Source: Eledone cirrhosa (lineage: Eukaryota). From it: 64,000 nucleotides of DNA. Both the position numbers and the translations under genes were made by a program. Under the pieces are notes generated by a model. That model did not search any database and was not told the DNA's origin. It saw only the letters and a list, made by a program, of their open reading frames with translations. Where the stretch lies: positions 175,398,001 to 175,462,000 of the forward strand of contig OZ024741.1 of the NCBI GenBank assembly GCA_964016885.1, read 5' to 3'. Of the stretch, positions 30,980 through 58,648 are shown piece after piece. How positions within the stretch are numbered: the first letter of the stretch is position 1; the number at the start of each line of letters is the position of its first letter.

Positions 30980-32645
<1,666 letters not shown>

Positions 32646-37874: not shown

Positions 37875-37962
37875 TCCTCTTGATAAGTCGGCAGACCTCG
37901 CAAGGACTCTATATCTTTGATATATTGTTTTTGTTTATGCCACGAAACTACGTAGTCGAGGA
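37875..37962 (+). ncRNA. Hammerhead ribozyme, family E (U3-A8 core variant, long stem II)
   Basis: tcctc TTGATAA gt-c-ggca...tgcc-ac GAAA CTACGTAG TC gagga; GUC site at C37957. Confidence 0.85.
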
Positions 37963-41599: not shown

Positions 41600-41842
41600 T
41601 GGGGATTATTTTCTTTGTTTTTGTGCCTCTCCTTTGTTCTGTCCTACGCCATCTTGTTTTTGTGTGTGTTGTATGCTTAGTTTGCGCATGTGTTACATCC
41701 GGGTGTCTGTGTGTGTTTATATTTGTTTATTTATTTGTTTATTTACATGTTACTGGTTGGTTGTTTGTTCTATGTGCGTGTGTGTTTTCATTTTGTCCTT
41801 AATTGTAAGTTGTGATGTTGCTGTTCCATTCATGTTTTCTAT

Positions 41843-43427
41843 TTAATGTTGGTTGGAATCCATTTATGTTTATTGCCTCCGTGATTTGTCTAAACATTGC
41901 GTCTTTTCTGTGTGTAGATTCTAATTTTATTTCTATGTTCTCTAATTTACCCTTATGTTCTATTTTAGCATGTTGGTAGAGTACAGATGATTCTTTACTA
42001 TCTTGAAGGTCTCGTCAGCGTTCATTTATCCGTTCTCCTATACTACGAGCTGTCTCACCTATGTACACTATATTATTATCTCTACATTGTCCTTCAGTAC
42101 ATCTTATGCTATATACTACATTTCTAGTTTTACAGTTAATATGGGGGCTTAATTTACAGATTATACATTTCTTATCTATACAGGGAAAGGGTGTGTATTG
42201 CTAATAAGTGTTTTTATGGAGGTACCTGGTCTTTCTACTATCTTAATATTGAGTTTATGTTTATCTAGGGCCCTTCTAAATTTGTAAGCTAATTCACCTC
42301 TAGGGGTTGTATCGATGAACATTACACTCTGGTATTTATTGCTATCATACCATGAGTTTATTCTATTAACCTTATTCCTAGTTCTTTGTATTCTATTCCA
42401 AAATTTGCTCCTATACAAGGGGCAGATCGCATTTGTGTCATTATTTACCATTTTTTCCCATTTGGTTCTGGCTCCCCTATATACTCTGATTTTATCTCTC
42501 TGATTGTAACCAGAGAACTGCATACGGTGGATGAAGTGTTGTATGTGTCTCTCTAGTTCTTTGGGGTTGCACATGCGGGACACGTTTCTCATCACCCGTA
42601 CCAAATCCGCAATCAGTATGTTGATTTTGGTATGGTCCGAAACAGCTGAGTTTCGGTGGATCAGATATTTGGAAGTCATAGGTTTGGCATAATGGGAATG
42701 GAGGATTTGTTTTTTGTTATTAATGGTATCTAATGGTATTAATGGTATCTAATGTTTGGGGTGTTTGCTTGGGTAGTCTATAGTAACTCTAATACTCTGG
42801 TGGATGGAGTTAGCTATTTGCTGGATGCTTTCCATGGTGTTTTTCTCTAATTCCTGACTGTTCTCTAGTGGGGGTGTTTTTACTACGATGTTTATATCAT
42901 CAACGTAGCGGGAGTACACTATCAGGGTTAAGGGGTTGCTGTCTTCTAATTGTTCTTTAAGTTTAAGTTTAAGTCTATTGTCCCACCATACCATGAATAG
43001 GTTAGCTATGTCACCTGCAATGCTAACACCAATGGCTGCTCCCCCCTCTTGTGCATATGTTATTCCATTAAATTTGAACATATGTTCCTTAAGGGTTAAT
43101 TTTATGCTGCCCCCACCGCATGTGCAATCATTTTCTTTAGTTCATCGTGGTTTTCGGGGGTCCGTATGGCGTGGTCCACCCGTTCCATCTATTTGTGTGG
43201 GCTTATTGGCCATTGAGGTAATGCTAGGTGGTCTGCCTCTTGCTAGGTCTTGTAGGGCACAGGTTGCTAAGGCCATATGTATCTAGATAATCATTACTAT
43301 AGATAAGTTTAAGTAGGAGTCCCAGCTCACTGGTATCAATCCCACGGAATTCAACATTGCTGTCACTGATAATTTCTACGCATTTCTCCACAGCAAAATC
43401 CACGTCAATAGATGGATACAGGGACAC
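41843..43427 (-). pseudogene. PLE polyprotein (reverse transcriptase, Cys linker, GIY-YIG endonuclease), frameshifted
   Basis: SLYPSI, YAQEGGAAIG, YSRYVDDI, HFIHRMQFSGY, VMFIDTTP, CIDKKCIICK, CKTRNVVYSIRC..C..VYIGETARSIGER, RQITEA. Confidence 0.9.
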
Positions 43428-46435: not shown

Positions 46436-46738
46436 AAAAAAGTTGAAATCGAAAATGCAACTGGAGAATATTTAAGAATATTTATTTGATTCCTTTACCG
46501 GTTTCGCAGTTCTTATGCTTTTCAAAAGTAGAATTGAGATGGAGGGTTTGTGGTTTTTCTCGAGAAAACCACAAACCCTCCATCTCAATTCTACTTTTGA
46601 AAAGCATAAGAACTGCGAAACCGGTAATGGAACCAAATAAATATTCTTAAAGAGTCTCCAGTTGCATTTTCGATTTCATCTTTTTTCCTTATACTTTCAC
46701 TCGTGTAGGACATTTTGGAAAAAAACCTCATTTTATAA
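46432..46738. mobile_element. Family H fold-back with one hammerhead per arm (46489-46534 -, 46588-46632 +)
   Basis: Spacerless centre ttttctcgagaaaa; attctactt TTGAAAA gca taagaac tgc GAAA CCGG TA aaggaat; the right arm has an extra ~45 bp tail. Confidence 0.85.
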
Positions 46739-51439: not shown

Positions 51440-52110
51440 AGTTCTCAAGCCCGTCTACTTTACTCTATATCTGAATAAAATACTCTATATCTTAACACAT
51501 AATCCAAGAAACACAGAGCCATACAACATTATCTACAAGAACATCGCACTATAGAGACAAAACCCAAGAATGAAAAATAATTTCAAAAATATAAAATAAT
51601 CAAAAGCAAAAGACAAACGAAATCGCTTAAAAAAAACTACTCATCAGCACTAAATTACACACCACAACCTGAACACCAACAATTAAAAAGTATGGTCACC
51701 CTAATTGTGGAACATGTATTAACTTCATTAAAGACACCATGAATTTAAATCACGACACACATACTTTGTAAAACGTAATTTCACCTGTTCAACAAAAAAA
51801 TTTACCATGTATGCCATTAAATGTAAAGGATGTGCCGAAGAAAGGGCAAACCTAACTCATCCTTAGACACAGAATGACAATTGACTGCCAACAATTACGA
51901 GGCTCCACTACAAGGCAGATACCTCTTTGTGAACATTTAGATTTGTGCACAACGAACACGTCCCCCAGATTCCATGTTTCTCATTATACCGCTGTCCAGA
52001 TAATGCCCCGGATCAAACACGAATAAATAAAGAGCATGTAATTATTCTAAAATACGAACCACGTCGGGTTAGACTCTAACTACACAGACCTCATACACAC
52101 TTTGCTTTGT
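51440..52110 (+). pseudogene. Decayed PLE C-terminal (GIY-YIG) fragment, different family
   Basis: NFTCSTK..MYAIKCKGC..GQT..LRHRMT..RQIPLCEHLDLC..RINKE. Confidence 0.6.
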
Positions 52111-56759: not shown

Positions 56760-56956
56760 AGGAACAAGTATGACCCCGACGGCAGAGCTCAAGCCGTTTC
56801 GACGGCTAATTCTGTCCAGAAATAGCCGATAGCCGTCGAAACGGCTTGAGCTCTGCCGTCGGGGCCATACTTGTTCCTATTACCCACTCTACTACCCTAA
56901 GTATTGAGTACTTTGGTGCGTTATGATCCATCTGGTTCCTTACTACAATTCCTTCG

Positions 56957-56958
<2 letters not shown>
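56760..56958. mobile_element. Family D fold-back copy
   Basis: 56760-56808 is inverted at 56830-56880, followed by a ~78 bp tail. Confidence 0.8.
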
Positions 56959-56997
<39 letters not shown>

Positions 56998-57003
<6 letters not shown>

Positions 57004-57698
57004 TAAGTTTGAAGAACAGTCAGACAAAATATATCCAATTCTTTTCCTCCTTAGTCCGTAGAAATCAACTAGATAAATAATCATTTAAACGGAGCTAAGT
57101 TTAAAATGTAACTTTGAAGAAATAACAGATAAATGTTACAGACTTTCCTCTGTGAGGAACAGTCAGATAAAATGTACCTAGCCTTTCCTCTTAGTCCGTA
57201 GAAATTAACTAGATAAATTAAATGTAGCTAAGACTAAAACGTAAGTTTGAAGAAAAAAATGTAGATAAACTTTACCAAAATTCTTCTAGTCCCGATTATC
57301 GATAGTTTCGCTCGTACTTCGTGGATATGTCCAATCCTGGTATTATCCATGAGGCTTCGAGCTTTTCAAGAGACTCCCTTAGTTAGGACTAAAGTTTCTA
57401 AAGTGATCGCCGCCATTAACGAATTCAAAAGGGGTGAAAAACATCACGTGGCTTGCGTTCAAAGTAGAAGAGTTGTGAAGGGTAGGCCGGGTGGCTAGTA
57501 GGTTCATTGCTAGAAAAAGCAGTAAGGGAGTATAGAATAAATTCATAAGGACATATATGTATATATTTAGACATAATCGCAGATACATATATGAGTGTTG
57601 GCTACCTTCAAAGGTGTGGCTCTATGAAAAAATGAATTAAGCAAATAATTATTAATCAGAGCTATATAAAATTATAAGTTTGAAGAACAGTCAGACAA
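56998..57698 (-). mobile_element. HHR element family P: 671 bp period with ~30 bp terminal direct repeat
   Basis: aattataagtttgaagaacagtcagacaa at both ends; (TA)n flanks; internal diverged ~145 bp repeat. Confidence 0.75.
57288..57375 (-). ncRNA. Hammerhead ribozyme, family P (U3-A8 core, long stem II)
   Basis: Reverse complement agtctc TTGAAAA gctcg..tggata..tatcca..cgagc GAAA CTATCGATAA TC gggact. Confidence 0.8.
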
Positions 57699-57759
57699 TA
57701 TATATATATATATATATGTTATTTGTTGGAACTGGCATGTGGATAGGATCCATTTATAT

Positions 57760-58134: not shown

Positions 58135-58648
58135 TAACGGCGGTGGATTAGCAGTATCGGTAGAGGGTCGGATGCCAAGCTCTGTAGCATAGAGTTACGT
58201 CCCTTTACGTTCTGAGTTCAAATCCCATCGAGGCTAGCTTTGCCTTTCATCCTTACGGGGTTGATAACATAAAAAGTACCAGTCACGCACTGTGGTCGAT
58301 TTAATCGACTTTCCTCTCCCCCAAAATTACTGGACTTGTAGCCAAATCAGAAATATTATTATTATTATTGTTAGTATATATATATTATTATTGTTATTAT
58401 GTATATATTATTGTTAGTATATATATATTATATTGTTAGTATATATATATTATTATTATTATTAGTATCGGTAGAGGGTCGGACACCATGCTTTGACGCA
58501 TAGTTACGGTCCTTGCCATTCTGAGTTCAAATCCCGCCGAGGTTAACTTTGCCTTTCATCCTTACGGGGTCGATAAAATAAAGTACCAGTAATCTACTGG
58601 CTAATTGCTGGCCTTGTGCCAATAGTAGAACAATTATTATTATTATTG
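58135..58648 (+). mobile_element. Two tandem Deu/Nin-type SINEs (58135-58370, 58463-58648)
   Basis: B boxes, core and (ATT)n tails. Confidence 0.8.

Follow-up and report, generated by a model that had tools for sequence, protein, structure and literature searches.

A decayed insertion of a likely non-LTR retrozyme with a predicted pseudoknotted hammerhead in the genome of Eledone cirrhosa

The segment at positions 56999-57698 of the window, a 64,000-nucleotide stretch of Eledone cirrhosa DNA, is probably a decayed insertion of what is likely a non-LTR retrozyme, copied by a Penelope-like element (PLE) into a (TA)n tract and carrying a hammerhead ribozyme that is likely braced by a pseudoknot. 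It is one copy of a repeat, here called family P, residing in an AT-rich genome of 3.0 Gb. The features of this copy are collected in Table 1, and the evidence for the reading, which comes from sequence comparison, is drawn mainly from the other copies and from related hammerheads elsewhere in the genome.

The 671-nt period of this copy is measured from the spacing of a 29-bp direct repeat, which is exact in its two copies and matches at 35 of 36 letters when carried into the TA run. The first-pass annotation reported this repeat and period correctly. It also regarded a unit plus a 29-bp overlap as the design of the element, and this view does not hold for the family as a whole, in which the overlap can be missing or can exceed a full unit, and the 5ˊ joint lies at TA-rich microhomology. 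Rather, the 29-bp overlap represents a single truncation point beside a TA-rich motif, common to this copy and one other locus (L012); elsewhere in family P the overlap is either missing or measures anything between about 45 nt and more than one unit. We rejected a genuine terminal direct repeat or LTR because the repeat length varies by copy, the ribozyme is not inside the repeat, and the hammerhead is of type I. LTR retrozymes are recognized by fixed long terminal repeats with a type III hammerhead in each, an arrangement that family P lacks. A coding function was likewise rejected, the longest ATG frame being 69 amino acids in this copy and 39 in another (L006).

Structurally, the insertion carries a minus-strand type I hammerhead with a U3-A8 core, a 6-bp stem I, a long stem II and a 10-nt stem III, all as first described. 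Stem I is formed by 57375-57370 with 57288-57293 and includes two G-U pairs, and the layout on the minus strand predicts a cut between 57294 and 57293. The cleavage triplet is GUC in family P, while this copy has AUC together with a mismatch. In a descriptor scan of the window, the hammerhead at 57288-57375 is the sole strict match, and each of ten locally shuffled windows gives between zero and two descriptor matches. Furthermore, no Rfam hammerhead reaches the gathering score in the whole window, and only chance matches occur locally at E-values up to 10. A single copy is thus within chance, and the case rests on the family. Because it contains one hammerhead with a broken 15.2-16.2 pair (57296) and a broken predicted pseudoknot pair (57380), this copy is probably inert.

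Table 1. Features of the family P insertion and its flanks (positions in the window; a full stop marks features given without a strand)
Feature	Position	Strand	Remark
(TA)n target, 3ˊ side of the element	56958..56998	.	
Single family P insertion: one 671-nt unit plus 29 nt, non-coding, one hammerhead	56999..57698	-	
29-bp repeat, copy 1: the family's fixed 3ˊ end (end A), fused to (TA)n	56999..57027	-	43/63 arms stop there
Internal duplication of about 135 nt (133-143): 57153-57275 versus 57010-57139, 77% identical	57010..57275	-	
Stem I, 3ˊ strand	57288..57293	-	
GAAA (57309-57306), palindromic stem III and cleavage triplet; private G>A at 57296 (position 16.2)	57294..57309	-	
Long stem II, 53-nt domain: 5-bp base, internal loop, 6-bp upper helix, apex	57310..57362	-	
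Predicted pseudoknot 3ˊ pentamer CCTCA, 5ˊ side of the stem II internal loop	57350..57354	-	
Core strand, positions 3-9, with U3 and A8; position 7 variable	57363..57369	-	
Stem I, 5ˊ strand	57370..57375	-	
Predicted pseudoknot 5ˊ pentamer, TGAGG in family P; rare G>A at 57380 in this copy	57377..57381	-	
AGTCC box, predicted competitor for the 3ˊ strand of stem I (off state)	57386..57390	-	nested folding
Second fixed 3ˊ end (end B), approximate place, unused by this copy	57530..57545	-	8/63 arms, all into microsatellite
29-bp repeat, copy 2: 5ˊ-truncated start of an upstream partial unit	57670..57698	-	5ˊ ends differ between copies
(TA)n target, 5ˊ side of the element	57699..57717	.	

Family P is an old, dispersed, non-coding repeat family. 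A DNA search of the genome yielded 2091 candidates, of which 40 were scored and gave 59 matches. A 16-letter word spanning GAAA, stem III and the following TC has 157 exact matches in the genome compared to none for its reversed control, and 29 of 30 fetched loci with this word are family P. Since the same word is intact in 6 of 30 BLAST-selected copies, the counts very roughly suggest some 800 copies that bear the ribozyme. Pairs of copies are on average 0.89 identical (0.83-0.997). The unit, measured in ten loci that exceed one unit and have no coding sequence between units, is 671-698 nt long with a GC content of 32-34%, and the copy at 56999-57698 is the shortest of these ten.

The palindromic stem III that had been predicted for the consensus is borne out, as position 16.2 is a G in 28 of the 30 BLAST-selected copies and in 4292/4333 and 677/727 of the contig depth from sequencing runs X1 and X4, respectively. 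The G is thus the family state and the A at 57296 is private to this copy, and the exact 10-nt palindrome is kept in only 10/30 copies. An alignment of 47 copies, some of them chosen by the ribozyme word, has U3 in all 47 and A8 in 44, and position 7 varies (24 A, 11 G, 10 T and two gaps). Core conservation within the family is 0.96 compared to 0.88 for the flanks, a difference that is partly selected for by the search word. The 47 copies exhibit no compensatory stem changes, as expected for copies that decay after insertion. The hammerhead is the best-covered island in organism B, contig cover from run X4 being highest there.

Hammerheads with a long stem II extend well beyond this family. 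A U3-A8 long-stem-II pattern has 8415 matches in the genome and 13 in the control; the matches are dominated by a family with a unit of 591-592 nt that has the same pentamer pair as family P (see below), and 1399 matches, compared to 72 for the control, are left when this family is removed. The corresponding C3-G8 pattern has 1681 matches and 45 in the control. Where the overlap between units spans the ribozyme, most periods fall within 565-765 nt and some lie below or above this range. A distinct subclass of 600-770 nt had been proposed on the basis of a few families in the window. The wider group and its mostly 565-765-nt periods agree with this proposal, but the size itself falls within the published range of 51-972 bp. 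The U3-A8 core does not mark such a subclass, because a sister lineage (L187, L193) that is 70-74% identical to family P over most of the unit has a C3-G8 core, and because U3-A8 has already been published for PLE hammerheads. Family P had also been called unrelated to two other families, N and E, which we assume to be the 591-nt and 765-nt families. Whole-unit BLAST comparisons indeed give nothing better than an E-value of 0.01, but the hammerheads of family P and the 591-nt family share the core, the spacing and both pentamers, and intermediate lineages exist. The predicted pentamer pairing, on which the first-pass annotation did not remark, is the feature that unites the long-stem-II group.

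Members of two of these families are present in the window itself. Dimers of the 591-592-nt family, a young family with U3-A8 long-stem-II hammerheads, are found at 37880/38471 and 59266/59858 on the plus strand. A 765-nt unit at 31800-32580 on the minus strand has a C3-G8 hammerhead with a 97-nt branched stem II and its own version of the pentamers. The 765-nt family has 2659 candidates in the genome, with copies 94-96% identical.

The covariation analysis called for by the first-pass annotation gave a positive result, with 25 double-change cells compared to 7.9 after shuffling and none of 500 shuffles as high, in a set of 15 hand-picked P-clade sequences for which the shuffle control does not remove relatedness. 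The double changes are located at the 3-8 pair, at two pairs of stem II and at three pairs of stem III, and no compensatory changes are present in stem I or upper stem II among the 15 sequences. One apparent double change in the pseudoknot helix of this set is a one-column misalignment and was not counted. These data bear on the most skeptical reading of the locus, in which family P is an ordinary AT-rich SINE-like or satellite repeat and the hammerhead-like string is incidental. The Rfam silence, the matches in shuffled windows and a core barely more conserved than its flanks would all suit such a repeat, but the double changes across the clade, the concentration of variation at position 7, the excess of both pattern matches over their controls and the peak of cover on the hammerhead in organism B speak against it, and we consider it very improbable.

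A second structural feature is predicted from complementarity. One pentamer lies upstream of position 3, at a distance of 5-7 letters, and its complement lies inside stem II at a depth of 7-10 letters; six versions of this pair were found: TGAGG/CCTCR in the P clade, the 591-nt family and intermediates, YGGGC/GCCCG in the 765-nt family, and CGAGT/ACTCG, TGAGC/GCTCR, GGAAA/TTTCC and TGTAA/TTACA. The six versions would correspond to at most five independent changes. The pentamers were absent from the long-stem-II search patterns; 40 further loci were hand-picked, partly for variant pentamers. After stem filters, which 107 of 154 candidates passed (47 dropped), the mean share of candidates with at least five Watson-Crick pairs over the seven lineages with at least three members is 0.62, compared to 0.01, 0.01, 0.01 and 0.15 for shifted windows, the last value being due to a single lineage in which the word recurs within stem II. 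By lineage, at least five pairs are reached in 27/45, 6/21 (P cluster), 4/13, 2/12 (765-nt family), 6/6, 4/4 and 3/3 members, and at least four pairs in 15/21 members of the P cluster and 11/12 of the 765-nt family. When pentamers are exchanged between lineages, the matrix is close to diagonal; the exceptions are the pair of lineages with TGAGG and two off-diagonal cells with high values (0.38 and 0.58). In a separate test, in which the stem filters dropped 21 of 96 candidates, 6.6 of 13 clusters reach five pairs, compared to 0.95 with swapped partners. The TGAGG/CCTCR layout has 7809 matches in the genome and 4 in the control.

Within family P the pattern is less complete. Both pentamers are exact in only 16/28 copies, and no compensatory pentamer change occurs in the 47 aligned copies. 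A prediction that pentamer variants confined to single copies would be compensated mostly failed and left one candidate (L207), and a matching upstream word that reaches five pairs was found in one of nine fetched loci of a lineage with the variant ATTCC. In the run X4 contigs, the listed pentamer variants are the two sides of one pair, at 16% and 12% and unphased; these were counted apart from the change at 57380 in the present copy. The layout has no exact matches in metagenome and viral contig collections, which are mostly microbial. Taken across lineages, the complementarity makes it rather likely that the pentamers form a Watson-Crick pseudoknot, a tertiary contact that would favor the active fold over a competing helix.

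Such a competitor is visible in predicted folds. The active fold of family P copies lies 2-9.5 kcal/mol above the best fold when pseudoknot energy is left out. In six of ten P-like copies other than the one at 56999-57698, the 3ˊ strand of stem I pairs with the AGTCC box, which sits at -17/-18, with a probability of 0.95-1.0 in nested folding. This modeled pairing might be the reason for the pseudoknot, an off state for the circle, or a sign of poor activity. The circular fold has a z-score of -4.4 for the present copy and -1.8 for L006 (25 shuffles each). The pentamers could also be read differently within an otherwise identical retrozyme, as a nested helix formed early on, which keeps the ribozyme inactive or steers its folding instead of making a tertiary contact in the active state. 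During transcription, both pentamers would emerge ahead of the 3ˊ strands of stems I and II, and nested folding does use this helix in one copy (L169), while other off states are used in most copies. However, the spacing of the upstream pentamer from position 3 (5-7 nt) tracks the length of stem I (3-6 bp), its partner sits 7-10 nt into stem II, where two loops meet in the known fold, and pseudoknots of this kind speed cleavage according to the cited part of one study (PMC3088659). An early nested helix is therefore quite unlikely, and we retain the pseudoknot as the more likely role of the pentamers.

The ends of family P copies carry the footprint of PLEs. Among 63 arms in 57 loci, a count that left out two duplicate loci (L006, L083) and one non-P locus (L088), 43 arms terminate at end A (40 of them into microsatellite), 8 at end B (all into microsatellite) and 12 elsewhere; two of the 57 loci gave no arm, and arm lengths range from 70 to 1603 nt. 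The first 30 loci of this survey were selected with a query ending at A. Arms of loci chosen by the ribozyme word, blind to the ends, divide into 18 at A, 3 at B and 9 elsewhere (n = 30). In the circular register of the unit, end B follows end A after about 133 nt. Arms in both orientations are present at eight loci, of which three combine A with B and five include an arm with another endpoint; A-A and B-B combinations are absent. In other words, the 3ˊ end is fixed at (TA)n, the 5ˊ end is variable, partial tandems are common and inverted arms occur. A bias towards (TA)n, 5ˊ truncation, partial tandems and inverted copies are features of PLEs in the cited part of Craig et al. (2021, PMC8557442).

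Several observations were made beside these ends. The unit has a third decayed subrepeat at 57530-57690 (minus strand) in addition to the internal duplication in Table 1, and the spacing between ends A and B equals the subrepeat period. A (TA)n tract is adjoined by a near-perfect inverted repeat with arms of about 55 bp at 56761-56880, which has the look of a truncated terminus, in inverted orientation, from a different and abundant repeat family. Related sequence occurs beside other (TA)n insertions (L004, L021, L052). Two pattern matches (L144, L152) have a U3-A8-like core followed by sequence resembling this hairpin family, and their stems do not fit the type I layout.

The genome also contains autonomous PLEs. 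A GIY-YIG search of the genome gave 150 listed matches from 10596 candidates, and 32 loci were examined. We take these to be Neptune-like PLEs with the Zn-linker motif plus one divergent PLE, the clade name following in part PMC8557442. One autonomous element (L044) has a 938-amino-acid frame with RVT_1 (28 bits, slightly below the cut-off) and GIY-YIG domains, flanked by 1.07-kb terminal repeats about 5 kb apart. Each of the two repeats contains a small hammerhead of the U3-A8 type whose stem III is palindromic. The L044 family is young (about 96-98% identity), and its copies, exactly like those of family P, stop at an internal TA motif and run into (TA)n; the ends cluster near +171-173 and +102-110, with several in between. 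Three further PLE families have U3-A8-like motifs as judged by eye. In one PLE family (L049, L055, L059), a U3-A8 hammerhead-like motif downstream of the frame reads GCAA instead of GAAA in all three loci, which would alter a letter of the catalytic core. Another U3-A8 family, in which stem II is short and stem III is a perfect palindrome of 10 nt, is represented at L044:500 (plus strand) and in L075. Within the window, a fragment of an autonomous PLE's terminal-repeat hammerhead is found at 46525 (minus strand) and decayed PLE protein fragments at 51474-52064 and 41832-43108. Two repeat copies about 310 nt apart at 58147-58600 resemble a tRNA-derived SINE.

None of these elements provides a direct partner. 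Terminal-repeat sequence in common with family P is present in 0 of the 32 PLE loci sampled from the 150 listed GIY-YIG matches, and the mobilizer is therefore inferred from its footprint. With none of the 32 similar in terminal repeat or 3ˊ end, family P was not assigned to any named autonomous PLE family. No long-stem-II hammerhead is contiguous with a PLE frame among 125 loci; PLE protein matches occur in five of these and are in opposite orientation, distant, or separated by a TA run. The last case (L143) was rejected as a partner, its PLE fragment being a separate insertion.

Family P might instead be the 5ˊ-truncated terminal repeat (pLTR) of an extinct or unsampled autonomous PLE, copied from a linear transcript with no independent small RNA circle. 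Its insertion footprint and core variant are the same as those of the autonomous PLEs of this genome, loci with two hammerheads are rare (2/57), and a preprint (bioRxiv 10.64898/2026.07.22.740005) derives retrozymes from pLTRs in its cited part. We nevertheless judge this reading unlikely, given that the ten multi-unit loci repeat at the unit length with nothing coding between, that no family P locus runs upstream into a reverse transcriptase frame, and that tandems of the autonomous PLE repeat at about 5 kb (L044). The clearest dimer (L005/L006) has units that are 99.7% identical and damaging changes common to both; it was rejected as proof of rolling-circle copying because a later duplication fits these common changes equally well. 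Dimers and multimers are numerous in the sister 591-nt family.

For the retrozyme reading that we prefer, the following sequence of events is proposed. Tandem master copies would be transcribed and, very probably, self-cleaved after GUC to give monomers of about 690 nt. We give even weight to these monomers being ligated into circles and to their staying linear. The step in which we place the most confidence is the last, in which a PLE endonuclease would nick (TA)n and the PLE reverse transcriptase would prime at end A and in some cases at B as well, on the opposite strand, making a copy of variable length that runs through the cleavage junction and is joined at TA microhomology. For the insertion at 56999-57698, copying would have continued 29 nt beyond one full unit. 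The same insertion footprint would also be expected from a linear multimer that had not been cut.

The element is of a known kind and resembles several described systems. Like metazoan non-LTR retrozymes as described in the cited parts of two reports, family P is non-coding, low in GC (<45%), has one type I hammerhead per unit, occurs as monomers and occasional tandems in a genome with PLEs, and falls within the published consensus lengths of 51-972 bp, for which a PLE origin is proposed (Li, Clavereau and Pollet 2026, bioRxiv 10.64898/2026.07.22.740005). It differs from them in that its unit is longer than the RNAs of 170-400 nt that were tested (Cervera and de la Pena 2020, PMC7229834), in being mostly dispersed as single units in (TA)n, in its 53-nt stem II domain, 10-nt palindromic stem III and U3-A8 core, in being known from DNA alone, and in a predicted Watson-Crick pseudoknot where their loop contacts are usually non-canonical. 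As far as the cited parts of PMC4209133 and PMC8557442 describe them, PLE terminal-repeat hammerheads resemble family P in the U3-A8 core, palindromic stem III, partial tandems, inverted 5ˊ-truncated arms and (TA)n targeting; the U3-A8 variant gives about 1,300 hits in Schistosoma mansoni in a study that also contains the circle model (Cervera and de la Pena 2014, PMC4209133). Unlike PLEs, family P has no reverse transcriptase or endonuclease frame, an enlarged hammerhead rather than a minimal one, and no sequence similarity to the PLE terminal repeats sampled in this genome.

Pseudoknots between the peripheries of stems I and II occur in about 40% of the hammerheads of a 2011 survey, including the human C10orf118 ribozyme, and were reported with rate tests and natural U3-A8 examples in the cited part of Perreault et al. 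(2011, PMC3088659). Type III motifs with a long helix and a pseudoknot are known from toad and termite HDV-like RNAs in the cited part of PMC7936874. The short Watson-Crick helix predicted in family P is similar to these. It would differ in joining the upstream strand to the 5ˊ side of the internal loop within a lengthened stem II, in a type I hammerhead of a high-copy animal retroelement. The HDV-like motifs instead have their internal loop in helix I, where it pairs with the terminal loop of helix II. In the literature covered, which includes PMC13725137, PMC7761336 and PMC10085705, figures and supplements aside, we found no description of a Watson-Crick pseudoknot of this design in animal type I retrozymes, and the pseudoknotted long-stem-II type I architecture is probably undescribed.

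The U3-A8 core, pseudoknotted hammerheads and retrozyme units of up to 972 bp have each been published already. The new element is the complementarity between pentamers in the strand upstream of stem I and in the stem II internal loop, in six versions across lineages. Animal repeat hammerheads have so far been described with non-canonical loop contacts, without them, or as dependent on dimers. If an enlarged type I ribozyme has a Watson-Crick contact that covaries, a sharp mutate-and-rescue test becomes possible. In addition, C3-G8 and U3-A8 cores in one scaffold form a natural series, and the pseudoknot layout can serve as a descriptor in searches for ribozymes overlooked by Rfam. With its fixed ends A and B, family P also joins the evidence that PLE proteins mobilize retrozymes, for which the main arguments to date have been co-occurrence and similarity of terminal repeats.

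More tentatively, and with slightly less than even confidence, family P may be part of a radiation of about 10,000 hammerheads in this genome, with an undescribed architecture in which a type I hammerhead with a long stem II would form a pseudoknot between loop 1 and the stem II internal loop, a contact rewritten at least five times. The pseudoknot would make these fast monomeric ribozymes, and the box upstream of the pentamer in the P clade would act as an off switch that protects the RNA circle. Such ribozymes are missed by Rfam, and the class may be common in invertebrates.
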